A stretch of DNA of 44,489 bases from Candidatus Moraniibacteriota bacterium (GCA_034003925.1 JAVEXR010000001.1:14966-59454); one strand, 5' to 3'. Shown: positions 2,554-14,713, counted from the stretch's first letter. The notes: a model not told the origin generated them from the sequence alone. A program made the numbers and translations.

Positions 2554-2650
2554 ATTTTTATAATTTTAGCTTAAATATCATATTCTATTATGGCGGAAAG
2601 AGGGGGTTTTAGCAAGGGAGGAGAATGTTCTAAGTGTTGTAGATGTTCTA

Positions 2651-2666
2651 TCCGCCAGCTGGCGGA
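2651..2666. repeat. Perfect 16-bp palindrome TCCGCCAGCTGGCGGA
   Basis: Related copies are TCCGCCGGCTGGCGGA (9331-9346) and CCTCCAGTTGGCGGA (9173-9187). Confidence 0.85.
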
Positions 2667-2772
2667 GTTGGAAATGTTGGAGATAGGGGAGATGAGGAAA
2701 TGTAGATTAATTTTGAATTTCTAATTTTGAATTTTGAGTGAAATCTTAATTTCTTAATGACTCAAACATTCC

Positions 2773-2788
2773 GTCAGTCGCGACTGAC
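2773..2788. repeat. Perfect 16-bp palindrome GTCAGTCGCGACTGAC
   Basis: Read directly. It lies in the divergent spacer between clpC and the surface locus. Confidence 0.85.
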
Positions 2789-2907
2789 AGGTTGAAAATT
2801 TAAAGATAAACCCCCTCTCTAACTCTCCCCCTTGAGTACAAGAGGGAGAGGATTGACGCTTCCTCATTAGAAATTCGAAATTTAAAATCTACTGTTCTAT
2901 TGTTAAC

Positions 2908-2946
2908 ATGCTAACGTGCTGACATGCTAATATGTTCCATGCTCTA
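2908..2946. repeat. Phased octamer array (ATGYTAAN type)
   Basis: ATGCTAAC GTGCTGAC ATGCTAAT ATGTTCC ATGCTCTA. Confidence 0.8.
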
Positions 2947-3027
2947 TACTAAATGATTATAAAAAAGTAAATGCAATTATTAAATTTCCAATGGATTATT
3001 TTTTTCGTAAATCTTAAATCATACATC

Positions 3028-3056
3028 TTAAATCTTCTGAAATTGTGTGTTATAAT
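3028..3056 (+). promoter_or_regulatory. Extended -10 promoter candidate for the large surface-protein gene
   Basis: TGtTATAAT at 3048-3056. The 14-mer TGTTATAATTTAAA is repeated exactly at 6278-6291. The -35 (TTAAAT) is weak. Confidence 0.55.
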
Positions 3057-3118
3057 TTAAAGAGAAAAGATTCTTTTGAGCTATTTATCCCAATAGCCAT
3101 TTTAGTCTTAGATGAATT

Positions 3119-5314
3119 ATGAAAAACAAAAAAAGGAGGAGAATGATAGGGAAAATTTATTATTTACGAGCAATTTTAATTTGTTTTTTTTGCTCTTTTT
3201 TATTTTTAACCAGTGATGCCCAAGCAGAAACCCGAACCAAGACGGTGGAATATTTTTTGGGACAAAACCAAAATTCAGGGACAGGTTTGGCAGCTAATAC
3301 TTACTGGTCTCCGACAGCCGTGACGATTGATCTGCCAGATGCTATAACTTCAGCTAATGCTATCAAATCAGCTTGGATAGATTTTACTTTTCAAACTGCC
3401 ACTACAGGCGCTCCGGGAGTTGTAACAATCGGACTTACTCCTTCGGGCATGACGGAAAGTGTTTTTACCTCGGCTTCTTATTTGGCTTCTGGTGAAAACT
3501 ATGCCATAAGAGTCAAGCCTAATTTTACTTCAGCTGTAGCCTCTAGGTTTAATGCGGCTGGAGCTTATTCTTTTAGTTTTAGGGCTAAAGTAGGGAGAGT
3601 AGCTACTAAGATGGCTAGCGCTAAACTTTTTATAACTTACGATTATGATAGTCAAGCGGCTGTTCAGTTGAATACTGTAAAATATATGATCGGGCAAAAT
3701 AATGGAAACGTAGCAGTCGGTGCAACTGGAGTTACATTTACCTCTCCTAATCTATCAATTTCAGAGAGTGCTCCCACAGTCGTTTCAGCTTGGGCGGAAA
3801 TAAGGGGACAGATTCCCGCTACCGGAACAACTGACAATACATTTGCAATCAATTATGATTCGGATACTGTAAAGAATTATTATTTGGATAACGCGGGAGG
3901 CGCAGATACTCAGGCTATTTATATATTGCATTCCAAGAATACGATTACTCTCAATACGACGCACACGCTAAAAGTAGCTGCCACTACAGGTTACCAGATG
4001 AATCTTGTTTCAGCGGAACAAGTAATAACTTATAAATTTAATTATGCTAATTCTACAACACTGACTAAAACAAGGGATATATTATTGGGCTCTGACGGAT
4101 TTCAATCCTCATCGGTTTCTTTGGACATCGATGAGACGATAAATATTCCGGAAGATAATCATAGTTTTAAAAACATATTTTTGCGGGGAACAGCGCATAG
4201 CTCTACAGCGGGCAATCGTAATTTAGCGGCGCAGCTAGGGGGGACGACTCCGACTCCGACTTTAACGTTTGCCCAAACTGCTGCCACAGAAACGATGAAT
4301 AATTTTTGGATATTGTCAAATGATGTAAATAATTTATCAACCATGACTCAGGGAGACAATCAGATTGCCACTACTTTTACGGGGACGATGACTTCGCGAG
4401 CGTCTCAAGTAGTATTAACTTATTCTTATAATAAAAGCTCGAGTAGTGAATCAGGCAGCGCCCTTTTTTGGACAGAGCAACAGACGGCTTATGGAACCAC
4501 AGGGACACCCAGTGTGAATGTTTCGGTAGCCGGCACTACTCAGTCGGGTAGTTGGGATTCATATATTTGGGCTAATTCAGTAAACGGTAAGACAGCGGAT
4601 AAGGACGCATATATATCAACTCAACCAACAGTAACTACTGTGTATAATTGGAATTCAACTGGCGAATATCAATGGATTTTATTTTTTCATCGGAATATTT
4701 CTGGAGAGATTAAGGATAATGGAAACTATACAATAAATCTAAATTCAAAAGGAAGTAATGTCATGGCAGCGGTTATGGGAGTTTCCTATGAATATTACGC
4801 TCCAACTACAGGCTCTTTATTAGTGGATATCGTAGATTCAGGAGGTGCATCAATAGTTAGCCCTTCGGTTAGTTTTTCGAGTGCGAATTTTAATTGGGGC
4901 GCTCAGCAATCTACAGCTACTATGGGAATTCCAGTTCAAAAAATAAGAGTGACTAACACCACTACTACTCCTAGTTGGACGCTTTCAATCGCTGGGACAG
5001 TGAGCACTAATCTCTGGACTAGCGGAGGAAATACTTATAATTTTAATGGGGATGCAACTACCGGAAGATTAAATGTAAATGCTAGTGGCGCAACCGTAAC
5101 TCCGCAAGGCGGTTGCACTACAACGGGATTGACTAACGGATCATCAGCTTATTTTATCCAGAGCACTCAAGATTCAATCAATTTAATTACAGCCGGAGCT
5201 AGCGCTGGGACAAATTGCTATTGGGATATCACAGGCGTGAATATGACCCAAGATATACCGGCTGCACAATTAACTGGAAGTTATTCTTTGAATTTAATTC
5301 TGACAGTTATTTGA
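3119..5314 (+). CDS. Large secreted surface protein: signal peptide, four tandem ~115-135 aa modules, C-terminal WxL-like domain
   Basis: 731-aa ORF. N-terminal K/R-rich region, hydrophobic helix and AQA cleavage motif. Thr/Ser/Asn/Gly-rich beta-type composition. The last ~165 aa are paralogous to the next gene and include PSWTLSIAG and a terminal YSLNLILTVI. Confidence 0.85.
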   Translation: MKNKKRRRMIGKIYYLRAILICFFCSFLFLTSDAQAETRTKTVEYFLGQNQNSGTGLAANTYWSPTAVTIDLPDAITSANAIKSAWIDFTFQTATTGAPGVVTIGLTPSGMTESVFTSASYLASGENYAIRVKPNFTSAVASRFNAAGAYSFSFRAKVGRVATKMASAKLFITYDYDSQAAVQLNTVKYMIGQNNGNVAVGATGVTFTSPNLSISESAPTVVSAWAEIRGQIPATGTTDNTFAINYDSDTVKNYYLDNAGGADTQAIYILHSKNTITLNTTHTLKVAATTGYQMNLVSAEQVITYKFNYANSTTLTKTRDILLGSDGFQSSSVSLDIDETINIPEDNHSFKNIFLRGTAHSSTAGNRNLAAQLGGTTPTPTLTFAQTAATETMNNFWILSNDVNNLSTMTQGDNQIATTFTGTMTSRASQVVLTYSYNKSSSSESGSALFWTEQQTAYGTTGTPSVNVSVAGTTQSGSWDSYIWANSVNGKTADKDAYISTQPTVTTVYNWNSTGEYQWILFFHRNISGEIKDNGNYTINLNSKGSNVMAAVMGVSYEYYAPTTGSLLVDIVDSGGASIVSPSVSFSSANFNWGAQQSTATMGIPVQKIRVTNTTTTPSWTLSIAGTVSTNLWTSGGNTYNFNGDATTGRLNVNASGATVTPQGGCTTTGLTNGSSAYFIQSTQDSINLITAGASAGTNCYWDITGVNMTQDIPAAQLTGSYSLNLILTVI

Positions 5315-5339
5315 CTTTTTCTTTCAGATGGTGTATAAT
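5311..5339 (+). promoter_or_regulatory. Near-consensus sigma70-type promoter overlapping the stop codon of the large gene
   Basis: TTGACT (5311-5316), a 17-nt spacer, then TATAAT (5334-5339). Confidence 0.6.
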
Positions 5340-5369
5340 TAATCTGTAAAAGTAAAAAAGGCAGTAAAC

Positions 5370-5440
5370 GGGTGAAAATTCTTTTCCTCAAATCCTTAAA
5401 TAAATAGGGAATTGAAGAAATGAATGTTCACCCTTTTTTA
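5370..5440 (+). terminator. Long imperfect hairpin plus T-run between the large and small WxL-like genes
   Basis: GGGTGAA (5370-5376) pairs with TTCACCC (5427-5433). There is internal pairing, and TTTTTT follows. Confidence 0.6.
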
Positions 5441-5540
5441 ATTTAAAAAATAAGTAAATAAAAAAATAAAAAATTACTCTGTAGAAACATATATTATAAA
5501 ATAATAAATAAAAAATATGTTTTTCCAAGGGAATAAAAAT

Positions 5541-6206
5541 ATGAAAACAAAAGTAATCAACTTGGTAGCTAGAAGAATCGGAATTTTTTCCATGATTCTT
5601 TTGGGAATTGTAGCTATTAAGGCCTCTGCCAGCAATCAATCCCAGTTAAATCAGTCGATTAACGAGGGAGTAAAAGCAATCGATATCGTAGACGCAGGAG
5701 GAGCTACAGTAGCTAGTCCAGCAGTCTCTTTTGCTTCGACTACCTTCTCCTATGACACCCAAAATACTACTGGAACATTGGGATCTTCTGCACAAAGAAT
5801 TAGAGTTTTTAATCCTACTTCCACCTCTACTTGGACAGCTAGTATCGCGGGAAGTGCTACTGGTGCCACTTGGACAAATGGAACTGCCAATTACGATTTT
5901 AATGATGCCTCTGGATCTGGCTATACTGACGGAGCAGATACAGATAATTTAGGAGGACAGTTAGCAGTCAATCCAGCAGCAGGAACTTTGGCTGGCGTAT
6001 CAAGTTGTGCTACAACTAATGTTTCCTTGGGTTCAAATAGTGCTTTTGCTGAAGGTACAACAGATAGTATCACATTAGCTTCAGGAGCTTCAGGCGCAGC
6101 AACTTTCTGTCGATGGGATGTGACTAACATAGGTCTTACTCAAAAGTTACCAGCCGCTCAGGTAGCTGGAGCATATTCCTTGAACTTAGTCCTTTCCATA
6201 ATCTAA
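5541..6206 (+). CDS. Small secreted protein consisting of one WxL-like domain (paralog of the C-terminus of the 731-aa protein)
   Basis: The ORF track starts at 5517, but the ATG at 5541 gives a typical signal peptide (MKTKVINLV...AIKASA). The mature part aligns with aa 566-731 of the upstream protein: DIVDAGGATVASPAVSFAS, RIRVFN..STWTASIAG, FCRWDVTN..PAAQVAGAYSLNLVLSII. Confidence 0.85.
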   Translation: MKTKVINLVARRIGIFSMILLGIVAIKASASNQSQLNQSINEGVKAIDIVDAGGATVASPAVSFASTTFSYDTQNTTGTLGSSAQRIRVFNPTSTSTWTASIAGSATGATWTNGTANYDFNDASGSGYTDGADTDNLGGQLAVNPAAGTLAGVSSCATTNVSLGSNSAFAEGTTDSITLASGASGAATFCRWDVTNIGLTQKLPAAQVAGAYSLNLVLSII

Positions 6207-6234
6207 ACAAAAGAAAAATTTATACATATTAAAG

Positions 6235-6263
6235 AACATTCTCCTTTGTGAGGATGTTTTTTA
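6235..6263 (+). terminator. Rho-independent terminator after the small WxL-like gene
   Basis: AACATTCTC / GAGGATGTT stem with a 6-nt loop, then TTTTTTAATTT. Confidence 0.7.
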
Positions 6264-6277
6264 ATTTGCATAGTTTA

Positions 6278-6286
6278 TGTTATAAT
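6278..6286 (+). promoter_or_regulatory. Extended -10 promoter candidate for the DUF916-like gene
   Basis: TGtTATAAT about 50 nt upstream of ATG 6337 and just after the terminator at 6235-6263. Confidence 0.55.
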
Positions 6287-6336
6287 TTAAACAAATTTAA
6301 AATGACTTTTTTAAAATAAAATTATAAAAATAAATT

Positions 6337-8676
6337 ATGAAAACAAAAGTAGTATTGAGTATGTTTTTGTTTGCAGTAATATTTGCTCTAGCTCCAGGAC
6401 TCGTTACGGCTATCGAGTACGGACAAATGGGTGGCAGTCCGACTAACTTTGATCCTAACGTTCCTGATAGCAAATCCTGGTTTATTTATAAACTTGACCC
6501 CGGTACAACCAAAGAAGATTCTTTGACAGTGGTTAATCTTTTTGAAGACTCTTGGACAGCCATTATTTATGCAGCCGATAGTCTTAAAAGCTCTAGTGGG
6601 GGTTTTGCTCTTAGACAAATAACTGAACCCAAAGAAGCTGTAGGCTCTTGGGTAAAATTTTATCCCGAAGCTAAACCTGCTTTTGCCAATAAAGTCTTTG
6701 AAGATAAAAAAACCATTGACGAAGTGTGTAAAGTTTCTGGCGATGACCTAAAAAATAACTATGAGCTGAGTGAAGATAATATTTCTGAACTTAAGAAATG
6801 GTGTGAAGGAAAGGAATTGGTAGAAATGGATCTAAAATCCGGAGAGAAAAGGGAATTGCTTTTTGTGATCAGTATTCCCAAGGATGCCGATGTGGGAGAG
6901 CATACTGGAGGAATATTGATTCAAAAGAAAAGTAAGGACGAAGCTGCTCAGAGTGATGGCTCAAAAGTGATGCTGACTACTCGCGTAGGGGTGAGAATTT
7001 ATGAAACCGTGCCTGGAGACATAAATAAGACATTGGCTTTTTCTAATTTAAAAATAGCTAAAAATTTTGATGAATTTTATTTACCTTGGGATAAAGATAA
7101 AAAAGATAAGTTTAAAGAGTATTTAATCACTTCGGATATTAAAAATAATGGCAATATTAGCGTTGATTTTAGTGAAAAAATAACCATTGCCAATGCAATA
7201 ACTAGGAAAACAGAAAATATAGAAAATCGTAATTTTCAGGTTTTAAGAGGAGATAATTTTGTTTCAACTCTGTCTTGGAAAGGCCCGCGTTTTGGATTGT
7301 TGAGTTTTCAAAAAGAATATCGTTATGCAAATACTAACGGTGAAGAGCAAATAGTTCAATCTGAATTAATTAAGAAATGGTTTATTCCCTGGAGAGAGCT
7401 AGTAATAGTTACTTTTTTCGTTTTGATGGCGACGGGAGTCTATGTTTTTTGGAAAAGATATCAAAGAAAATATTATGGGGGAATCGGTTGGATAAATTAT
7501 CAGGTAGGAGAGGGGGAAACTGTGCAGAGTTTAATCAAGAAATTCTCAGTGGATTGGAATGTTTTTGTTAAGACTAATAAATTAAAGAAGCCTTATCTAT
7601 TAGAAGCTGGACAAATGATAAGGGTGCCTAAAAATAATTCTGGAGACTTGCCCGAAGAAGACTTTTTCTCAAAAGAAGAAACTAACCCAATTAAGAATTC
7701 ACCGGAGAAAATTATTTTAACTCCCAAATCTCTGACTGATGGAGTAGCTAATAAAGATGAATTATCTGACGAAGATATTTTGAACAGAAAAGATCTTTTT
7801 GACGGCTCACCGGAAAAAGAAAATATTAAAGATGATGTGGTTGAGATAGCAGACATTAAAAAAGATACTAAGGATACTCTGATGAAAAATGATATTGTCG
7901 ACAGTTCTTTATTTTTTGCTAGTGATGCTTCGAAAAAAGAAGAAAGTTTGGAGGTAATCAAGGAGGAAGAGGTATTGCCTGTGGCTAAAACTAAAAAAAC
8001 AATTGTAAATGCTCAGCCTCTTAGGAAAAATGCTGATATTCGAAAACCACAAGCAACTATTGTTGAAGATGTGGAGAGTGATTTTAAATCTATTAAAGAA
8101 AGTGTGCCTGAGAAAAATGATGATTTAATAATTGAAGATGGTGCGGCAACTGTTTTGGGCAATAAGGATGATAGTAAGAGTTATTTTAAATTAGTGATTA
8201 TAGCCTTAGCCTCGGTAATTATTATTTTATTGGGGACAGTTATTTATCTGCTTATGAATAACAAAGCAGCAGAAAAGACAGTGATTCAATCAGCACCAGC
8301 CAATAGTGAGAGCAATCAAGGGTCTGCTCCATCAGAAAATGTAGCGGTGGAAGAAAATAAAGAAGAGGCCACCGAAGAGGAACCGCTTGACCCGCTAAAA
8401 ATGACAATTGAGGTCTATAATGCGAGCGGAGTGGCTGGGGCAGCTGGTAAAGTAAAAGACTTTTTAGTGAGTAAAAAATATGAGAGCGTAGAAGCTAAAA
8501 ATTATCCTGGTGATGAGGTAGCTGGTTCAACTATCTATTATAAAGAGGAAAGAATGAAAGAAGAAGCTCAGTGGTTAGCTGATATGCTAAAGGATAGCGA
8601 TATTGATGCTCAGGTTAAATTAGCCACCACAGAAGAAGAAAAAAGTGCTGACGTGGTCATTATCTTAGGAAAATAA
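6337..8676 (+). CDS. Membrane protein: DUF916/DUF3324-like (WxL-interacting type) ectodomain, TM, LysM, acidic linker, TM, LytR_C domain
   Basis: 779 aa with a signal peptide. The N-terminal pattern SPTNFDP..SKSWFIYKLDPGTTKEDSLTVVNL...SSSGGFAL, GEKRELLFVISIPKDADVGEHTGGILIQ and VGVRIYE matches DUF916/DUF3324 cell-surface proteins as I recall them. TM1 is about aa 354-372. LysM is YQVGEGETVQSLIKKF..LLEAGQMIRVP. TM2 is about aa 617-640. The C-terminal LytR_C pattern is IEVYNASGVAGAAGKVKDFL...ADVVIILGK. Confidence 0.8.
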   Translation: MKTKVVLSMFLFAVIFALAPGLVTAIEYGQMGGSPTNFDPNVPDSKSWFIYKLDPGTTKEDSLTVVNLFEDSWTAIIYAADSLKSSSGGFALRQITEPKEAVGSWVKFYPEAKPAFANKVFEDKKTIDEVCKVSGDDLKNNYELSEDNISELKKWCEGKELVEMDLKSGEKRELLFVISIPKDADVGEHTGGILIQKKSKDEAAQSDGSKVMLTTRVGVRIYETVPGDINKTLAFSNLKIAKNFDEFYLPWDKDKKDKFKEYLITSDIKNNGNISVDFSEKITIANAITRKTENIENRNFQVLRGDNFVSTLSWKGPRFGLLSFQKEYRYANTNGEEQIVQSELIKKWFIPWRELVIVTFFVLMATGVYVFWKRYQRKYYGGIGWINYQVGEGETVQSLIKKFSVDWNVFVKTNKLKKPYLLEAGQMIRVPKNNSGDLPEEDFFSKEETNPIKNSPEKIILTPKSLTDGVANKDELSDEDILNRKDLFDGSPEKENIKDDVVEIADIKKDTKDTLMKNDIVDSSLFFASDASKKEESLEVIKEEEVLPVAKTKKTIVNAQPLRKNADIRKPQATIVEDVESDFKSIKESVPEKNDDLIIEDGAATVLGNKDDSKSYFKLVIIALASVIIILLGTVIYLLMNNKAAEKTVIQSAPANSESNQGSAPSENVAVEENKEEATEEEPLDPLKMTIEVYNASGVAGAAGKVKDFLVSKKYESVEAKNYPGDEVAGSTIYYKEERMKEEAQWLADMLKDSDIDAQVKLATTEEEKSADVVIILGK

Positions 8677-8722
8677 AGATTTGTATTTTTTATAAAAGTA
8701 AAATTATAAAGTAGTTAAAAAA

Positions 8723-9088
8723 ATGCGGGTGAACTTTTTTTTAAAGACAATTTGGATGATAGTTTTGATATGTAACTTTCAAATTGCTTCGGCTGATAGA
8801 GCTGTGGCGAGCAGTTTAAATGTGAATCAAAGCATCTTGCCGGTAAAATTCGTTTACTTAAGTGGTCATGGCTATATCAATGATATCTGGAGTAATGTAG
8901 GGGAACGGGATGATTTGTATGTAGTAAAATTCTTTAATGAGGACAAGGAAGAAGTGCCTCTGACAGAGGGATTGTTTTCGCAATATGCCGAGAAATCTCA
9001 AAAAGTGATAGTGCAGAGAGATATCACTCAAAGTAATCAATTCTTGAAAGGTGATAAATTGACTGAGGAAATATTAACTATCGTTTAG
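8723..9088 (+). CDS. Small secreted hypothetical protein, last gene of the surface-protein locus
   Basis: 121-aa ORF with a signal-like N-terminus (FLKTIWMIVLICNFQIASA). It starts 47 nt after the upstream stop with no intervening terminator, and a strong terminator follows it. No recognisable family. Confidence 0.6.
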   Translation: MRVNFFLKTIWMIVLICNFQIASADRAVASSLNVNQSILPVKFVYLSGHGYINDIWSNVGERDDLYVVKFFNEDKEEVPLTEGLFSQYAEKSQKVIVQRDITQSNQFLKGDKLTEEILTIV

Positions 9089-9106
9089 GCAAATCGAAAT
9101 TTAAAA

Positions 9107-9138
9107 AACCATCCCGATAGTGAGGATGGTTTTTTTTA
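9107..9138 (+). terminator. Rho-independent terminator ending the surface-protein locus
   Basis: AACCATCC / GGATGGTT stem with a 9-nt loop, followed by a T8 run. Confidence 0.85.
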
Positions 9139-9289
9139 TTGTCTAAGCCTCTTTATAATTTCTACTCGCTCACCTCCAGTTGGCGGATTGTCGAAGTGGT
9201 CGGGTAAATAAGAAAGGTTCATAAAGTTAATACGAGTATGTCATGCTGAACTCGATTCAGTATCTCAGGATTTATAAATGAGATCCCAC

Positions 9290-9311
9290 ACCTGCCTGCC
9301 GGCAGGCAGGT
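9290..9311. repeat. Perfect 22-bp palindrome ACCTGCCTGCCGGCAGGCAGGT
   Basis: Read directly. Degenerate copies are at 42112-42131 (CCTACCTACCGGCAGGCAGG) and 42030-42046. Confidence 0.9.
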
Positions 9312-9419
9312 AAATGAATTTCTAACGCTCTCCGCCGGCTGGCGGATCCCTAAGAAATTTTACTTTCTCCGCCTTGGCAAGCTAGAGCGAGACAGGTGGA
9401 TGACACCGCTGGGGTGTCA

Positions 9420-9610
9420 GTTTCTTAACGCTCCCTTCGACCTGCCCGCCATTGCCAAATCAAATGTCTTAAATAGTTTGTTTAATGTGCAGAATATATT
9501 GAGCTTGTGGATTATTAATAGATAAGGCTGTGGCAGGCGGGGTTGATTTATTTTATTTTATCTGCCCGCCTGCAATGCAAGCAAAGCTCTGCGGGCAGGT
9601 AAGGTGTGGA
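9420..9610. repeat. Noncoding backbone repeat, copy A, interrupted by GC-rich inserts
   Basis: GTTTCTTAACGCTCCCTTCGACCTG (9420-9444), GATTTATTTTATTTTATC (9545-9562) and GTAAGGTGTGGA (9599-9610) match 42217-42271. Two extra segments are absent there. Confidence 0.8.
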
Positions 9611-9649
9611 TGGGATACATAATATGTTTTAATCTTAAAGCTCACAAAG

Positions 9650-9690
9650 CGGGTAAAATTAAAACCGCTAATTAACGCTAGCGGTTTTAA
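9650..9690 (-). terminator. Hairpin terminator downstream of the RND operon
   Basis: Perfect 10-bp stem AAAACCGCTA (9661-9670) / TAGCGGTTTT (9679-9688). A short U-run follows on the minus strand. Confidence 0.55.
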
Positions 9691-9699
9691 TTGATGTTT

Positions 9700-12600
9700 T
9701 TATTTAGTTTTATCTTTGACGAAGGTCATAAATAGAACCGGCACTAAAAAGAGAGTTAGAAATGAGGATAGGATTAACCCAAATATTACCGCGCTTCCTA
9801 AGGCTCGCCATAGTTCATTGGAAAGAGTGATAGGGATAATACCGAAGATAGTACAGATAGAGGTAACAAAGATGGCTTCCAATCTTGATTTACCGGCATC
9901 AATAATGGAAACATCAAAGGGAATACCACTATTGATATTGAGATTTATCTTATCAATCAGAATGATAGCATTTTTAACTACTATCCCAAAAAGCGCCAAT
10001 ATTCCGATTAAGCCAGGAAAGCTTAGACTGATTCCAAAGATAGCCAGACCCAAAAATGTCCCAATGAGCGCCAATGGCAAAGTAACTAAAACAATGGCGG
10101 ATTGTTTAAAGGAATTAAATTGAATAATCATTGTAGAAAAAATGAGTATTCCGGCAATGATCATTGCTCTAAGAATTGAGGCGACCGATTCAGCGTTTTG
10201 TTCATTTTCTCCTCCATAGGTGATTTCGTATCCTTCTGGTAATTCGTATTGTTGGGATAATTTCTCTTGGAATTGAGCTAAGATTTGATTGGAGTTGGTC
10301 CTCTTATCGGCTCCTGCAGAAAGATAGACCGTTCTTTTTTGATCAATGCGGTTTATGGTTTCGATAGAGGGTTTTAATTCAATCTTGGCCACATCTTTGA
10401 GATAAACAGGTTCGCCCAATTTGTTGATAATTTGCAGGTTTTGAATAGCATCTAGAGAAGGAATTTTTTCTTCATTGAAACTGGCTACCACATCGATGTC
10501 TTTATTGTCTTTTATTACGGTAGAGATAGTAGTACCTGAGATAGCTGTGCGTAGAGTCATGCCTACCAAAGAAGCATTAAGGTTATAAAGCTCCATTTTG
10601 GCGGTATCTAGTTTAAATGTGTATTCAGCTGGGGATTCTTTAAAGGATATGTCAGTGTTAATGGTGCCTTCAATTGAATCTAAGATTTTTCTTAAGTCGT
10701 TGGCGATGCTGTCTAGTTCTTGCAGATCGTCGCCTATGATTTGAGCTTGGAAGGCGGAACCAGAAGGTGGTCCTCCAGAGGGACTGCTAATATTTATGGT
10801 AGCTTCTTGGATGTCTTTGACATCATTGCGTAAACTGTCGGAAATTTCATAAGATTTTCTTTCTCTTTCTTTGGTGGGAGAGAGCTTTATTGTGATAGAG
10901 GCTGTGTTGGAAGTGTCTTGAGCTATGCCGATATTTCCTCCTTGTCCAGGATTACCAACTAGAGTAGAAAAATTAATTATCTCTGGATATTGGTAGAGTT
11001 TTTCTTCTACCTTTTGGATAATTTTATCTGATTGCCCAAGGTTTAGCCCGACAGGAGCGCGCATACTGATATATATTTCTTCGCTATCTGAGGTGGGGAA
11101 AAATTCTGTCTTAACAATGCCCGAAATTGGGAGAGATACAGCGATAGTAAATAAAAGTACAATAGCGCCAATAAAGGTGAAGCGAGATTTCTTGGTGCAC
11201 AAAACTTTTTTGAGATATTTCTCATAAATTGGCAGAACTCTCTCAAAGTTAATAATTCCATGAATCAGTTTTTGAGAAAAAGTTCCAGCTTCTCGATTGC
11301 CCTGAGCATAAAGCTTGGCTTTGATAGCTTCATCATCGCGCCATTCTTTTTTAACCAAAACGGCGTTTTCAGCCAAAACGTTCTTTCCTCTTGTGAAATA
11401 CCAAGACAACATCCAGATAGCGATAGCTAAGAAAAAGATGCTAAAGATATAACCATACACATTGTGCAAAGTGATAATAAAAATTCCCAGAAAGATTAAG
11501 GAAAAAAGGATAACGGCAAAGAAATTTTTAGTCAGACGAATTCTCTCCAGTACAGCGGCCAATGGATGGTTTATCATCAGGGCGATAAGAAGTGATGAAA
11601 CTAAAGTTACTGAAACAGTAATAGGAATTGATTTGATATATTCTCCAATTATTCCTGAAGCCATTAGCAGGGGTAAAAATGCCCATACAGTAGCCAAGGT
11701 AGTGGTGGTAAGGACGATTTTAAAATCGCGAAGCACCAAAAGAACAGCCTCTTCGGGAGTAAATTTGCCACTTTTCATATATTGCTTGGTGGCGCTAACT
11801 ACCACGATGGCGTCATCTACCAGTAGTCCCAAAGCCAAAAGTAATGAAAAGATCGAAAGAAAATTCAAAGAAGTCCCGGTAGAAAGCATCACTCCGAAAG
11901 TGGCAAAAAACACCAATGGAATAGCTAATCCAGCTACGAAAGCTTCCTTAAGACCCACCACTAAAAACAAAATTCCTACCACTAAAACTAAAGTTATCAA
12001 AAAATCATGAGCCAGTTGCTCAAAATCTTGTCTGATTAAATCAGCCTGATTGATGGTGGTGGCATAATCCAAATCTTCTGGTAATTTTTTTAATTCATTA
12101 TCAATGGTTTCTTGCGCTTGAGCAACTGTGTCCAAAATTGAGCTGCCGGTTCTTTTGATAATCTGGATACTGATAGAATTTTGAGGAGAATTTCCGTTTT
12201 GAGAAAAACGGGACAAAATCTTTTTTTCAATAGATTGTTCTTTGACCTCGGCAATATCTCTTAAATAAACAATAGCTCCATTGCCAGTATGGGAAACAGG
12301 GATGTTAGCTAAAGCTTGCGCATCAAAAAAACGTGCGTCTGTTCTTACTGGATAATTATATTCTTCACCTTCGAAATTTCCAGCGGGAATAGCTCTATTG
12401 GTAGCGATAATAGCTTGATTAGCCTGGTCTATAGAGAGATTAAAAAAAGATAGTTTTTGAGGATCGTAAGCCACACTAAATTCACGTTCATCTCCTCCAG
12501 AAATTTTTATTTCTCGAATGCCGGAGATTTTTTCTAATTCATCTTGTATATTTTCAGCAAATTCTCGAAGAGTAAAACCATCAAAAGGTCCCGTTAACTC

Positions 12601-13128
12601 AAAGGTAACTACGGGCGTATCGTCAAAAGATATTTCCGTTACCTGAGGATCTTCGGCATCTTCGGGGATTTCATTTCTGATATCAGCTAATTTATCCCTT
12701 AATTTCCTGACAGAATTATCGATATCCTCATTGGCGTTAAACTCTACCGTTACTGAGGAAAAAGAATTAGTTGATTGAGAAGTGATTTTATCTATCCCTG
12801 AGATGCCAGAAATATGAGTTTCAATTTTTTTGGTAACCAGCTCTTCTACGTCAGTGGGTGAGGCGCCGGGATAAATATCTGTCACTACCGCAATCGGAAT
12901 TTTAACTTCTGGATTAGATTCTCGCGGTAATTTAATATAAGAATAAATTCCCCAACCAGAAAGAATAAGAATCATTAAAATGACAACTCTAAAGTTAACC
13001 ACAAAAAAATTCAACCAGCTTTTCTTAAGCTCTGGGTCAAATTCGAGTTTCTCTAAATAAACTAAATCACTGGATTTAATCTTATGAGATTTGGGAGAAG
13101 ATTTTTCTTCGGGTATGATATTTTTCAT
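9700..13128 (-). CDS. RND-family efflux transporter (AcrB/AcrD/AcrF type)
   Basis: 1142 aa with a 12-TM, two-large-loop architecture. Typical RND motifs are present (LALGLLVDDAIVVV, GILALFGIVVKNAIILID). Confidence 0.9.
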   Translation of the reverse strand: MKNIIPEEKSSPKSHKIKSSDLVYLEKLEFDPELKKSWLNFFVVNFRVVILMILILSGWGIYSYIKLPRESNPEVKIPIAVVTDIYPGASPTDVEELVTKKIETHISGISGIDKITSQSTNSFSSVTVEFNANEDIDNSVRKLRDKLADIRNEIPEDAEDPQVTEISFDDTPVVTFELTGPFDGFTLREFAENIQDELEKISGIREIKISGGDEREFSVAYDPQKLSFFNLSIDQANQAIIATNRAIPAGNFEGEEYNYPVRTDARFFDAQALANIPVSHTGNGAIVYLRDIAEVKEQSIEKKILSRFSQNGNSPQNSISIQIIKRTGSSILDTVAQAQETIDNELKKLPEDLDYATTINQADLIRQDFEQLAHDFLITLVLVVGILFLVVGLKEAFVAGLAIPLVFFATFGVMLSTGTSLNFLSIFSLLLALGLLVDDAIVVVSATKQYMKSGKFTPEEAVLLVLRDFKIVLTTTTLATVWAFLPLLMASGIIGEYIKSIPITVSVTLVSSLLIALMINHPLAAVLERIRLTKNFFAVILFSLIFLGIFIITLHNVYGYIFSIFFLAIAIWMLSWYFTRGKNVLAENAVLVKKEWRDDEAIKAKLYAQGNREAGTFSQKLIHGIINFERVLPIYEKYLKKVLCTKKSRFTFIGAIVLLFTIAVSLPISGIVKTEFFPTSDSEEIYISMRAPVGLNLGQSDKIIQKVEEKLYQYPEIINFSTLVGNPGQGGNIGIAQDTSNTASITIKLSPTKERERKSYEISDSLRNDVKDIQEATINISSPSGGPPSGSAFQAQIIGDDLQELDSIANDLRKILDSIEGTINTDISFKESPAEYTFKLDTAKMELYNLNASLVGMTLRTAISGTTISTVIKDNKDIDVVASFNEEKIPSLDAIQNLQIINKLGEPVYLKDVAKIELKPSIETINRIDQKRTVYLSAGADKRTNSNQILAQFQEKLSQQYELPEGYEITYGGENEQNAESVASILRAMIIAGILIFSTMIIQFNSFKQSAIVLVTLPLALIGTFLGLAIFGISLSFPGLIGILALFGIVVKNAIILIDKINLNINSGIPFDVSIIDAGKSRLEAIFVTSICTIFGIIPITLSNELWRALGSAVIFGLILSSFLTLFLVPVLFMTFVKDKTK

Positions 13129-13151
13129 TTTTGATAAGTTAAAGCAATAAG

Positions 13152-14225
13152 TTAATTGTTTTTCAATGTGAGTTCATCTCCTTCTTTTAGCAGCTTGCTA
13201 CCATCGATAATTATTTTATCTTCTGGATTAAGTTCTGCTTTTATTTCAGCCATTTCGCCAATAACTTTAATCAGTTCAATGTTTGTCTTTTGAGCTTTTT
13301 GCTGGTTAATTGTGAAAATATAGTTTTCATTTTGACTGATGGTTATAGCGGATAGGGGTAAAATTAAATTTTCCAAAGACTGTGGCAAGTAATTCATATT
13401 GAACTCTACACTCACGACTGAACCAATAGCAAGTGGTTGATTATCAATAGGCGTAGCCTCAACTAAGAATCTCTTAGTACTTTCGTCGGCCTGAGGGGAT
13501 ATTAGGCTTATTTTTGCGCTTATGGCATTATCATTTTCAAGAAGTTTTATTTCGTCGCCTAATTTGAAATATGATAATTCCTCTTTATTTACAAAAAATT
13601 GAACTTCTAATTTTCCCATTTTGGAAATAGTAGCAATGGGTTGTCCGGCATTGATAGAATCTCCGACAGAAACAAATTTTTGAGTGATTGTGCCAGAAAT
13701 AGGGGCGCTTACAAATTTACCATCCAAGGCGCCCTGTAGAGCTGCTTCGGCGCTTGCAAGTTGAGCTTCGGCAATTTCTTTGAGTCTTTTATTGGTATAA
13801 TTCTCATGTTTTTTGTAAACTTTTTTAGCTAGGCGATAATTTTGATCAGCCGACTCTACCGCTGATTCCAATCCCTTGATCTGACTATCTTTAAGTCCAT
13901 TTTCCCCAAAACTGGAAATTGTGCCAGCTAAATCAATGGTAGCTAGGCGTTGTCCTTGAGAGATGTTTTTGCCTAAATCAAAGTTTAATTGGGTAACTGT
14001 CCCGTTGCTGCTAGCGTTTAGGGTAATTTGTTGATTGCTGGCGATGATTGCGGGATAAATTGCAGTTTTCTTGAAACTGTGGCTATCTGAAACTGTTTGG
14101 GCTGATACCACAGTGGGTTTTTTAACGATAGTTTCTTCGGTGGCTGGTTTTTTTTGAGAAAATCTAAAAGCTAAAATAGCCAGAAGAGCTATGAGTATGA
14201 TTGAGATAAGTAGTTTTGGCTTCAT
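13152..14225 (-). CDS. Efflux adaptor, membrane-fusion protein (HlyD/RND MFP family)
   Basis: 357 aa with an N-terminal anchor, a coiled-coil hairpin (AQLASAEAALQGALDG) and lipoyl/beta-barrel motifs (APISGTITQKFVSVGDSINAGQPIATI). It lies directly upstream of the RND gene. Confidence 0.88.
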   Translation of the reverse strand: MKPKLLISIILIALLAILAFRFSQKKPATEETIVKKPTVVSAQTVSDSHSFKKTAIYPAIIASNQQITLNASSNGTVTQLNFDLGKNISQGQRLATIDLAGTISSFGENGLKDSQIKGLESAVESADQNYRLAKKVYKKHENYTNKRLKEIAEAQLASAEAALQGALDGKFVSAPISGTITQKFVSVGDSINAGQPIATISKMGKLEVQFFVNKEELSYFKLGDEIKLLENDNAISAKISLISPQADESTKRFLVEATPIDNQPLAIGSVVSVEFNMNYLPQSLENLILPLSAITISQNENYIFTINQQKAQKTNIELIKVIGEMAEIKAELNPEDKIIIDGSKLLKEGDELTLKNN

Positions 14226-14245
14226 AATGATTATTGATAATTGAA

Positions 14246-14713
14246 TTATTTCTTTCTATAAATATTTTTAAATTTAACTTCTTGCTCATCCAGAAAAGTC
14301 ATTAATTTTTTCATGAATTTGATATGGGTGATGATTTCTTTTTTGCTAAAAATCTTTTCGTTAGCTAGATGGAATTTTTCTATTTCTTTCATGGCTTTTT
14401 TTACTTGAGTTTTTCCTAAGTCAGTTATTTTAAGAATGGTTTCACGTTTATCCTTGCTAGAGATACTCTTGCTCCTAGTAATAAGCCCATTTTTTTCTAA
14501 AATATTAAGCCTTTGGGTGATATTGGACTTGCTTTTGCCAGTCAGTAAAATCAATTCTTTGGCAGTAGTTACTTTTTTGTTGTGTAAATAGCCCAAAATT
14601 CGCATGGATGACAAGGACAGTCCCATTGGATGAAAGATGTACTTGTTGGCCATAGATTCAATTTTTTCTCCAATAAAGATAAAATCTTCGGAGGGAATTT
14701 TAATACATTTCAT
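14246..14713 (-). CDS. MarR-family transcriptional regulator
   Basis: 155 aa. The winged-HTH pattern is LSLSSMRILGYLHNKKVTTAKELILLTGKSKSNITQRLNILEKNGLITRSKS..DKRE. It is the first gene of the MarR-MFP-RND operon. Confidence 0.88.
   Translation of the reverse strand: MKCIKIPSEDFIFIGEKIESMANKYIFHPMGLSLSSMRILGYLHNKKVTTAKELILLTGKSKSNITQRLNILEKNGLITRSKSISSKDKRETILKITDLGKTQVKKAMKEIEKFHLANEKIFSKKEIITHIKFMKKLMTFLDEQEVKFKNIYRKK

Follow-up and report, generated by a model that had tools for sequence, protein, structure and literature searches.

A far-diverged cluster of four genes in a Moraniibacteriota-like CPR bacterium, related to the WxL/WxLIP cell-surface systems of lactobacilli and enterococci

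WxL-type cell-surface clusters (WxL/Csc) are encountered in Lactobacillales, with Enterococcus faecium loci A-C, the elr locus of E. faecalis, and the csc clusters of L. plantarum as references (PMC1534035, PMC9772566, PMC10599100), next to the structures PDB 9i25 and 9i1y. The literature places such clusters nearly exclusively in Lactobacillales and Bacillales and connects them with gut colonisation and virulence. By definition, a WxL cluster has one or more WxLIP and two or more WxL-domain proteins that lie no further than four genes apart (Hassan 2023, PMC10599100), and a hairpin of the WxLIP is predicted to complete the WxL sandwich (Hassan & Williamson 2023, PMC10599100). Small WxL proteins have their first motif at about residue 110 and the second about 106 residues later (Hassan & Williamson 2022, PMC9772566). 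For the csc clusters of L. plantarum, a role in the capture or degradation of polysaccharides has been proposed (Siezen et al. 2006, PMC1534035). Moreover, the Pam pilus of the CPR bacterium Ca. Mycosynbacter amalyticus has been solved (Troman et al. 2026, bioRxiv 10.64898/2026.03.03.709456), with structures PDB 25PZ/25QA and sequences such as WP_260763287.1. By abundance, Pam pilins rank 2nd and 9th among the proteins of M. amalyticus. That preprint is silent on WxL and DUF916, and no paper was found in which WxL is connected with Patescibacteria or with a donor-strand mechanism.

The present study describes four consecutive genes, p1 to p4, in a window of 44,489 nucleotides (the whole stretch of DNA analysed) from an ultra-small, Moraniibacteriota-like CPR bacterium. 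The locus is related, at a large evolutionary distance, to the WxL/WxLIP clusters of lactobacilli and enterococci, and what it displays on the cell surface is probably a variable adhesin. The WxL/Csc-like character proposed in an earlier note on this DNA is supported by DUF916, WxL profile, and synteny tests, with the qualifications given below.

Gene organisation and transcription units

All four open reading frames lie on the plus strand at the positions given earlier. The large module protein p1 (731 aa; 3119..5314), characterised by open reading frame, paralogy, and a match to the HMM of the module family (A1), consists of a signal peptide (aa 1-36), a variable passenger (aa 37-565; 3227-4813), and a C-terminal WxL-like module (aa 566-731; 4814-5311). 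The small, module-only protein p2 (221 aa; 5541..6206) combines a signal peptide and an N-terminal extension, NQSxLxQxIxxG, with a WxL-like beta-sandwich; its open reading frame starts at 5517, the ATG at 5541 is the likely start codon, and homologs measure 219-222 aa. The WxLIP-like membrane protein p3 (779 aa; 6337..8676), assigned on PF06030 matches of its family, AF2 model, and Foldseek, comprises a signal peptide, an ectodomain (6412-7386), a first transmembrane segment (TM1; 7393-7455), a LysM domain (7498-7629), a low-complexity linker, a second transmembrane segment (TM2; 8191-8256), and a LytR_C domain (8401-8673). Finally, the open reading frame of p4 (8723..9088) encodes a small secreted protein (121 aa), the N-terminal strand of which, sQSILPVRFVY, is conserved. 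The signal peptides that had been assigned to all four proteins are also predicted here, as charged N-terminal residues, a hydrophobic segment, and a site of the AxA type could be read from each sequence, with predicted signal-peptidase sites AQA|E (p1), ASA|S (p2), VTA|I (p3), and ASA|D (p4). The cluster is flanked by ClpB and an RND efflux operon, both in the window and in locus L001; in neither set of flanks does a glycoside hydrolase, sugar transporter, or regulator gene adjoin it, and no usher-like gene was found in the locus or its flanks. Two tRNAs were the sole matches of an Rfam search.

An extended -10 and a terminator had previously been ascribed to each of the genes, which proved correct in part. 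Exact extended -10 sites on the plus strand precede p1 (TGTTATAAT at 3048..3056, 63 nt upstream) and p3 (TGTTATAAT at 6278..6286, 51 nt upstream), and over the window the TGNTATAAT motif occurs more often than expected (13 times versus 3.2 +/- 1.6). The putative promoter of p2 is instead a near-consensus sigma-70-like site (TTGACT-17-TATAAT, 11/12; 5311..5339, plus strand), which overlaps the p1 stop codon and sits upstream of the hairpin at 5370-5439, and no convincing promoter was found upstream of p4. Terminators could be assigned on the plus strand after p1, as a long terminator-like hairpin followed by U6 (5370..5439; -28.4 kcal/mol, z -4.64, equalled by 0/200 shuffles), after p2, as a hairpin with U-run (6234..6262; -17 kcal/mol, z -6.19), and after p4, as a hairpin with U8 (approximately 9103..9137, from the fold of 9085-9200), but folding revealed none at the p3/p4 boundary (z -0.5). 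On basis of this layout, with no convincing promoter and no terminator between p3 and p4, the transcription units are probably p1, p2, and p3-p4, the last two genes being co-transcribed. A standard promoter/terminator scan of the sequence displayed no enrichment and missed the extended -10 sites and two of the terminators; folding and a search for the pattern brought these to light.

The membrane protein p3 and the module shared by p1 and p2

The membrane protein p3 is a homolog of WxLIP (DUF916). Its mature ectodomain scores 25.1 bits on PF06030 (DUF916), which is below the cutoff of 27.3 and is lowered by an insert of approximately 50 aa, and PF06030 is matched by 55 of the 56 p3-family members (best E 7e-15). 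The AF2 model (pLDDT 92) contains two beta-sandwiches and a TM helix; the DUF916/PGBD-like sandwich carries the insert, which is helical and includes a Cys pair, and the second sandwich is formed by mature residues 209-325. Foldseek comparison of this model with the PDB, as had been recommended, returned the solved E. faecium WxLIP structures as best matches, i.e., 9i25_C (E 8.6e-13; 'WxLIP bound to long WxL') and 9i1y (E 3e-12), which span both sandwiches, since the alignments cover 324-335 columns. Of the DUF916/DUF3324 pattern that the earlier note had recognised in the ectodomain, the DUF916 part is thus borne out, whereas DUF3324 (PF11797) gave no sequence match in p3 and is not one of the 25 families most often matched by its homologs, and the second sandwich is apparent in the model only. 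The transmembrane segment expected behind the ectodomain was located at aa 353-373 (TM1), directly past the two ectodomains. Beyond TM1, p3 contains elements that had escaped attention before, including LysM (aa 388-431), the second TM segment (aa 619-640), and LytR_C (aa 689-779). Situated between both TM segments, the LysM domain has a predicted cytoplasmic position, which weakens a simple wall-binding account. A PDB sequence search with the p3 family (A3) retrieved LysM and LytR_C chains only.

The sole low-pLDDT loop of the ectodomain model, aa 198-215 (6928..6981, plus strand), is a candidate for a strand donated to the module, judged from the model. It is flanked by the two most conserved motifs of the p3 family, GEHTGGIxIQ and RVGVRIYETVPG, and it matches the hairpin predicted by Hassan & Williamson (2023). 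Moreover, NFDPNVPDSKSWFIYKL of p3 stands where WxLIP has NQIDKxxxYFDLK, with a pattern that is similar, not identical, and in which W, F, and Y are conserved in the family.

The mature part of p2 is paralogous to the C-terminus of p1 (p1 aa 569-731 versus p2 aa 55-229; 42% identity, E 2e-42), as had been observed before, and the A1 HMM matches p1 aa 564-732 at E 5e-63. The W-x-L/A strand and the replacement of the second WxL by YSLNL, both described earlier, were recovered as well, the former as WTLSIAG at p1 residue 620 and WTASIAG at p2 residue 98, and the latter nine residues before the C-terminus of both proteins. The first-motif W is nearly invariant in the module family, and in alignments it falls on the W that is invariant in families A2 and A4; the Y of YSLNL is invariant across the module family, in which the second WxL tryptophan is absent. 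This tryptophan is also missing from the CPR WxL family A2 (consensus SYTATVTETV), although that family matches Pfam. In p2, the second motif follows 114 residues after the W at residue 98, and the protein is acidic (mature pI 4.05); the spacing of 102 residues in the p1 module is of the small type, not about 68. At 50% identity, the module family falls into at least 752 clusters, and in all 150 representatives listed the module is C-terminal, within carrier proteins of 160-2069 aa.

The Pfam model PF13731 (WxL) is matched by 0 of the 56 module-family members, even at E <= 10, and p1, p2, and p4 had no match in Pfam or NCBIfam. Profile-profile alignment by hhalign, in contrast, related A1 to A2, 22 of whose 28 members match PF13731 (96.6%, E 5e-10, 166 columns; score 73 versus a maximum of 23 in 30 shuffles), and to L055, which scores 25.0 bits on Pfam WxL, a value equal to the cutoff (98.2%, 187 columns). 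A bridge family aligned with A1 (99.5%) and with non-CPR WxL (97.5%), as did A2 with non-CPR WxL (99.2%), and shuffle and reversal controls of the module-WxL profile comparisons were clean. Direct alignment of A1 with non-CPR WxL alone was not significant (10.8%, 27 columns), nor was that with the single WxL-like neighbours L004 and L007, and the homology of A1 and WxL is therefore transitive and carried by intermediates, among which the sequences of L030, L038, and L055 join the module family and Pfam-recognisable WxL. By profile comparison, the module is a member of the WxL superfamily that is linked through CPR intermediates. The AF2 model of p2 is a beta-sandwich (pLDDT 90.3) for which Foldseek found nothing in the PDB at E <= 1e-3 (best E 7.6e-3), and a solved WxL chain was absent from the best 50 matches, though 9i25 should contain one. 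PDB sequence searches with A1, A2, A4, L067, and the p1 passenger yielded no WxL, Pam, or other informative match.

The genes p1, p2, and p3 are consecutive and conform to the WxL clusters defined by Hassan (2023), and the module-only p2 and the large p1 with its C-terminal module represent the small and large proteins of such clusters. Of 69 DUF916 loci from various CPR lineages, 56 have one or more module genes next to them, 40 have two or more, and 28 have a small together with a large one. The expected synteny was thus found in the form of a recurring triad of small protein, WxLIP, and large protein. The fourth gene, p4, is conserved but lineage-specific, with p4 homologs directly downstream of a p3 homolog in 13 distinct loci. 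It is not a small anchored protein of the Csc type (CscD), contains no LPXTG motif or C-terminal TM segment, and belongs to a different conserved family. The p1 passenger of 530 aa varies between lineages and was found solely in L012 and L013. Its description as four tandem repeats was dropped, as BLAST self-comparison gave no support.

Proposed assembly and alternative readings

The reading that we favour, and consider moderately probable, is that of a diverged WxL-type cluster in which p3 would tether p1 and p2 by strand insertion and p1 would present its passenger; the homology and gene association were observed, and insertion, tethering, and adhesion are proposed by analogy. As a WxLIP homolog, p3 would be anchored in the membrane of the cell itself, and p1 and p2 would be exported by Sec, both ending in a beta-sandwich module of the WxL superfamily. 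The normally disordered p3 hairpin (aa 198-215) may then turn into a beta-strand and close a gap in the module, as in the Enterococcus WxLIP-WxL pair, which would stabilise p1 and p2 and hold both at the surface. The passenger of p1 could thus be offered for attachment to host cells or substrates, with p2 as a putative module-only partner and p4 as a presumed lineage-specific accessory protein.

The resemblance to WxL and DUF916 could in principle be an artefact of composition or chance among four unrelated secreted proteins, because the richness of the modules in T, S, G, N, and A (52-60%) can inflate profile scores, and Pfam WxL is silent on the module. Against this stand the clean controls, the structural match of p3 to a solved WxLIP, the adjacency that is kept in most loci across lineages, and intermediates that match both the HMMs and Pfam WxL, and with the controls and the synteny, this explanation is in effect refuted. 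It is very improbable that the locus encodes a Csc-type complex that captures or degrades polysaccharides from plants or other sources: such a function would agree with the homology of the cluster to csc/WxL clusters and with the glycan- or envelope-associated nature of LysM and LytR_C, but the genes adjoining the cluster are of other kinds, and the p1 passenger is without CAZyme or CBM match.

A short fibre built by donor-strand exchange, as in the Pam pilus of CPR or in a chaperone-usher system that has no usher, is an unlikely alternative. Tentatively, p3 might serve as a membrane-anchored PapD-like chaperone/anchor, with p2 polymerising via its N-terminal extension into the next module; p1, which is without this extension, could conceivably form the tip adhesin, and p4 might possibly act as an adaptor or terminator donating its N-terminal strand. 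In agreement with such roles, chaperone-usher chaperones, i.e., CfaA (1e-8), CsuC, FimC, and EcpB (E 1e-8 to 1e-6), and RbmA come second to WxLIP among the Foldseek matches of the p3 model, and one p3-family member matches PapD_N. The best matches of the p2 model (CfaB, Csu, FimA, and the cannulae CanA; probabilities up to 0.99) are all donor-strand-complemented subunits, yet all are below significance (E >= 7.6e-3). The N-terminal segment of p2 is nearly invariant (Q39, I41, G44) and nonetheless modelled as a lower-confidence coil, module matches to large proteins mostly begin past it, and the N-terminal strand of p4 can be aligned to it at 58%, but over 16 columns only. For CPR Pam pilins, a truncated Ig-like C-terminal domain has been reported and PapD-like chaperones anchored by a C-terminal TM helix have been proposed on the basis of predicted structures (Troman et al. 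2026). However, Pam is reported chiefly in Saccharimonadia and Microgenomatia, PamA and PamB have two domains where p2 has one, and the ATP synthase neighbourhood of Pam (F1 alpha/beta motifs) adjoins the cluster in 1 of 69 loci (L019) and is absent from the window. It is equally doubtful that the WxL/WxLIP clusters of Firmicutes, Actinobacteria, and CPR constitute, together with Pam pili, one ancient usher-less donor-strand superfamily with membrane-anchored chaperones, of which this locus builds a short fibre; if so, WxL 'cell-wall-binding' domains would be pilin-like domains.

The order of the p3 fold matches, with WxLIP ahead of chaperone-usher chaperones, and the Pam parallel point to strand complementation as a possible mode of action of WxL systems. 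If true, the "peptidoglycan-binding domain" view would have to be revised, and Gram-positive surface complexes would be linked with pilus biogenesis. The data reveal that the WxL domain has a large sister family without annotation; this family is coupled to WxLIP-like proteins in many CPR lineages, and sequence intermediates lead from it to canonical WxL. Moreover, the locus provides a testable candidate attachment apparatus for ultra-small, probably episymbiotic bacteria.

Comparison with described pilus and WxL systems

The chaperone-usher pili of Gram-negative bacteria (Fim, Pap, CFA/I, Csu) resemble the locus in the fold that p3 shares with their chaperones, in the weak likeness of p2 to pilins, and in the principle of an incomplete sandwich that is completed by a donated strand. 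Unlike these pili, the locus has neither usher nor outer membrane, its 'chaperone' is membrane-anchored, and no sequence homology between the two was detected, and the resemblance is an analogy or a very remote relationship, not membership. The likeness to Pam, as that system is described in the preprint, includes a CPR host, Sec-exported subunits, and a beta-sandwich or truncated Ig-like C-terminal domain that is completed by a foreign strand. Pam also has two-domain PapD-like proteins anchored by a C-terminal TM helix, with which p3 corresponds at the fold level only, as well as a single-domain subunit (PamT), an RbmA-like anchor, no usher, and paired cysteines. Pam differs in that the two domains of PamA and PamB are joined by a linker donor strand, and in the pam operon of about 7 components, with its ATP synthase / CorB / MFS neighbourhood.

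Pfam-recognisable WxL and DUF916 clusters occur in other CPR lineages and in Actinobacteria, for example in Levybacteria (L004/L046) and Cryobacterium (L071-L077), respectively, and NCBI names include 'WxL domain-containing protein [Ca. Levyibacteriota]' and 'DUF916 domain-containing protein [Patescibacteria]'. The locus shares the triad architecture with these clusters, as well as the hhalign relatedness of 96.6-99.5%, and some of them encode a DUF916+LytR_C fusion, which in L004 measures 530 aa. In contrast to family A1 of the window, the WxL proteins of these clusters reach or approach the PF13731 threshold; an insertion of approximately 90 aa in small proteins is a feature of A2 and not of the window family, and the L004 cluster has an adjoining sortase, which the window locus does not have.

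Compared with the WxL/Csc systems of Lactobacillales, the locus resides in a CPR bacterium rather than a gut Firmicute, its module is not seen by PF13731, the second WxL tryptophan is replaced by YSLNL, and the p1 module has the small-type spacing. Unlike canonical WxLIP, p3 has no sequence-detectable DUF3324, contains the helical insert with its Cys pair, and continues behind TM1 with LysM, linker, TM2, and LytR_C as additional parts. The locus contains neither an LPXTG/CscD protein nor a sortase, and p4 takes the place of CscD. The shared features are a small module-only protein next to a large protein with the same C-terminal module behind a variable passenger, a membrane protein with the two-sandwich DUF916/WxLIP fold, and signal peptides throughout. 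Moreover, p2 resembles the small WxL proteins of Lactobacillales in the position of its first motif, in motif spacing, and in its acidity.

Gene content and the C-terminal module

The earlier note interpreted four consecutive genes at 3119-9088 as a diverged WxL/Csc surface cluster, and this interpretation is supported by the present analysis. All four ORFs were recovered on the plus strand where they had been placed: p1 (3119-5314, 731 aa), p2, p3 (6337-8676, 779 aa) and p4 (8723-9088, 121 aa). The p2 ORF opens at 5517, and its second ATG at 5541 yields the 221 aa proposed before, in agreement with homolog lengths of 219-222 aa. The proposed signal peptides are predicted in p1-p4; in each, a charged start leads into a hydrophobic stretch with an AxA-type site. 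Moreover, the paralogy of mature p2 with the C-terminal end of p1 is evident (p1 aa 569-731 versus p2 aa 55-229, 42% identity, E 2e-42), and the motifs read from the sequence were found: WTLSIAG (p1 residue 620), WTASIAG (p2 residue 98) and, nine residues before either C-terminus, YSLNL.

The C-terminal module common to p1 and p2 is, as judged by profile comparison, a diverged WxL domain, the homology being transitive through CPR intermediates. None of 56 members of the module family was matched by the Pfam WxL model, and an exhaustive profile search returned 752 representatives at E ≤ 1e-3 (461 at E ≤ 1e-30), in proteins of 160-2069 aa; the module formed the extreme C-terminus in all 150 representatives listed. 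Genes near p3 homologs in a Levybacteria locus (L004) and an actinobacterial one (L007) exceeded the Pfam WxL threshold, and 22 of the 28 members of the Levybacteria-type family (A2) matched PF13731 (best E 6e-12). Alignment of the window's module family (A1) with A2 using hhalign covered 166 columns at 96.6% probability (E 5e-10), beginning with the N-terminal QxIxxG strand, passing through the conserved W and ending with the Y strand at the C-terminus, with a score of 73 versus a maximum of 23 in 30 column shuffles and approximately 20 with reversed profiles. Besides, 13 CPR intermediates matched both HMMs as well as Pfam WxL (19-25 bits), and a bridge family aligned with A1, A2 and non-CPR WxL at 99.5%, 99.0% and 97.5% probability, respectively. 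A2 aligned with non-CPR WxL at 99.2%, and A1 with a protein of locus L055 that reaches the Pfam cutoff at 98.2% (187 columns); since direct comparison of A1 with non-CPR WxL reached only 10.8%, the relationship is a transitive one. The W of p2 at residue 98 and the 114 residues on to its second motif fit the small WxL proteins, for which approximately 110 and 106 have been described (Hassan 2022, PMC9772566); mature p2 has a pI of 4.05.

In three other loci, WxL-like ORFs begin in frame with a MerR-type HTH (Pfam 24-28 bits; L030:5604-6437, L032:4163-5023, L036:1691-2542). These could represent a regulator fused to WxL, or could result artefactually from stop-to-stop ORF reading.

The membrane protein p3

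p3 is a homolog of the WxL-interacting proteins (WxLIP). Full-length p3 matched LytR_C (E 4e-13) and LysM (E 1e-5) and stayed below threshold for WxLIP_PGBD/DUF916 (20.6 bits), while its mature ectodomain alone scored 25.1 bits against PF06030 (cutoff 27.3), which is ascribed to a helical insert of approximately 50 aa in the first β-sandwich; 55 of 56 p3-family members matched this model (best E 7e-15). Of the DUF916/DUF3324 pattern claimed earlier, DUF916 is thus upheld, and DUF3324 was not found by sequence. The AlphaFold2 model built from the family alignment (pLDDT 92) consists of two β-sandwiches, the insert and a TM helix, and its top PDB match was 9i25_C, "WxLIP from locus A bound to long WxL" of E. 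faecium (E 8.6e-13, TM 0.66 by target). The solved E. faecium structure 9i1y was also among the best matches, followed by the chaperone-usher chaperones CfaA (E 1e-8), CsuC, FimC and EcpB, and by RbmA.

Within p3 aa 353-640 (7393-8256), the LysM (aa 388-431) lies between TM1, which is followed by KRYQRKYY, and TM2, and is therefore predicted to be cytoplasmic, an odd location for a peptidoglycan-binding domain. The SP-DUF916-Ig-TM-LysM order is kept in 37 of 56 family members, many of which terminate directly after LysM.

Conservation and transcription of the cluster

A genome scan for the p3 family yielded 69 loci from Moraniibacteriota, Paceibacterota, Kerfeld-, Komeili- and Dojkabacteria, Microgenomates/Levybacteria, Peregrini- and Peribacteria, and Saccharimonadales, and, beyond CPR, from Actinobacteria and one Clostridia MAG. 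The anticipated synteny was apparent: at least one module gene was located within 5 kb of the DUF916 gene on the same strand in 56 of the 69 loci, at least two in 40, and a small plus a large one in 28, with 29 loci having the A1 type only and 25 the A2 type only. The triad of small protein, WxLIP and large protein is constant, and gene order is variable. In 13 distinct fetched loci, a homolog of p4 immediately follows that of p3; these homologs have no LPXTG motif, so p4 is not CscD-like, and the parallel with the small anchored Csc protein was not sustained. A sortase gene (L004:14782-15312) adjoins the Levybacteria cluster, recalling the LPXTG component of Firmicute clusters, and the window locus has none.

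The nearest loci derive from Candidatus Moraniibacteriota and Parcubacteria MAGs (68-70% identity, p3 ectodomain), and the source of the window is a CPR genome. ClpB and RND-pump flanks are common to the window and loci L001/L011. Genes for a 1142-aa RND efflux pump, a 357-aa membrane-fusion protein and a MarR-type regulator occupy the minus strand at 9700-14713, convergent to the cluster. This arrangement is kept in L001, where the large protein of the cluster has 1457 aa and is accompanied by two small paralogs; flanks are thus syntenic while cluster content varies. The passenger, p1 aa 37-565 ahead of the module, recurs among the 69 loci only in L012 and L013. The L013 ortholog (5651-7930) is 70% identical to p1 (3119-5314) over its full length, with only 50% for the p3 ectodomain there; an exchange of passengers or unequal constraint may account for this.

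An own extended -10 and terminator had been proposed for every gene, which holds in part. TGNTATAAT is over-represented in the window (13 sites versus 3.2 ± 1.6 expected; 13 reached in 0 of 100 shuffles), and exact copies of TGTTATAAT are located 63 nt upstream of p1 and 51 nt upstream of p3, whereas p2 was assigned the near-consensus TTGACT-17-TATAAT (5311-5339). Strong hairpins with U-runs are present 3' of p1 (z -4.6), p2 (z -6.2) and p4, and folding detected none in the 46-nt p3-p4 spacer (z -0.5), so the transcription units are likely p1, p2 and p3-p4. The TTGACT-17-TATAAT element stands 5' of a strong hairpin and U6 (5370-5439), approximately 200 nt ahead of the p2 start, and may either be fortuitous, overlapping with the terminator of p1, or belong to a p2 leader/attenuator. 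Long non-coding stretches with GC-rich inverted repeats border the locus (2554-3118 and 9089-9700); one of the repeats, ACCTGCCTGCC/GGCAGGCAGGT at 9290-9311, is a perfect palindrome (fold z -3.4), and neither stretch matched an Rfam family.

Assembly and relation to known systems

For the Enterococcus pair, a WxLIP hairpin has been predicted to complete the WxL β-sandwich (Hassan 2023, PMC10599100). This prediction and the solved WxLIP-WxL complex 9i25, taken with the only low-confidence loop of the p3 model (aa 198-215), on either side of which the two most conserved motifs of the family are found, lead us to infer that p3 would tether and stabilise p1 and p2 through strand complementation, and that p1 would display a variable adhesive passenger. 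A plausible alternative is that the locus builds a fibre like the Pam pilus of CPR, to which it is likened by described architecture: Pam pilins, which end in a truncated Ig-like domain, polymerise by donor-strand exchange, and structure predictions led to the proposal of PapD-like chaperones that are anchored in the membrane and have a TM helix at the C-terminus (bioRxiv 10.64898/2026.03.03.709456). The p2 model (pLDDT 90.3) had no significant PDB match, but its weak top matches were all donor-strand-complemented fibre subunits. Moreover, the p2 N-terminal extension is nearly invariant, yet modelled as lower-confidence coil, and aligns weakly with the conserved N-terminal strand of p4 (58% over 16 columns). 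The F1 ATP synthase neighbourhood reported for pam operons (bioRxiv 10.64898/2026.03.03.709456), however, is confined to a single fetched locus (L019:715-5186), in which the genes for alpha and beta immediately precede the cluster.

Returning to the WxL reading, the literature (including Hassan 2022, PMC9772566) places WxL almost wholly in Lactobacillales and Bacillales, and our literature search found no paper tying WxL either to Patescibacteria or to a donor-strand mechanism; the Pam preprint (bioRxiv 10.64898/2026.03.03.709456) never mentions WxL or DUF916. Some CPR proteins are already named WxL or DUF916 in NCBI annotation, and this kind of system is therefore already known. New are the module family that escapes Pfam, its breadth over CPR lineages, a WxLIP extended by LysM-TM-LytR_C, and p4 as a partner. 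Finally, conserved cysteine pairs occur in the module (4814-5311 and 5541-6206), where one invariant Cys is joined by that of FCRWD, and in the helical insert of p3 (6650-6760), as CxV...WCxG; both are likely disulfides, and Pam pilins likewise have paired cysteines.
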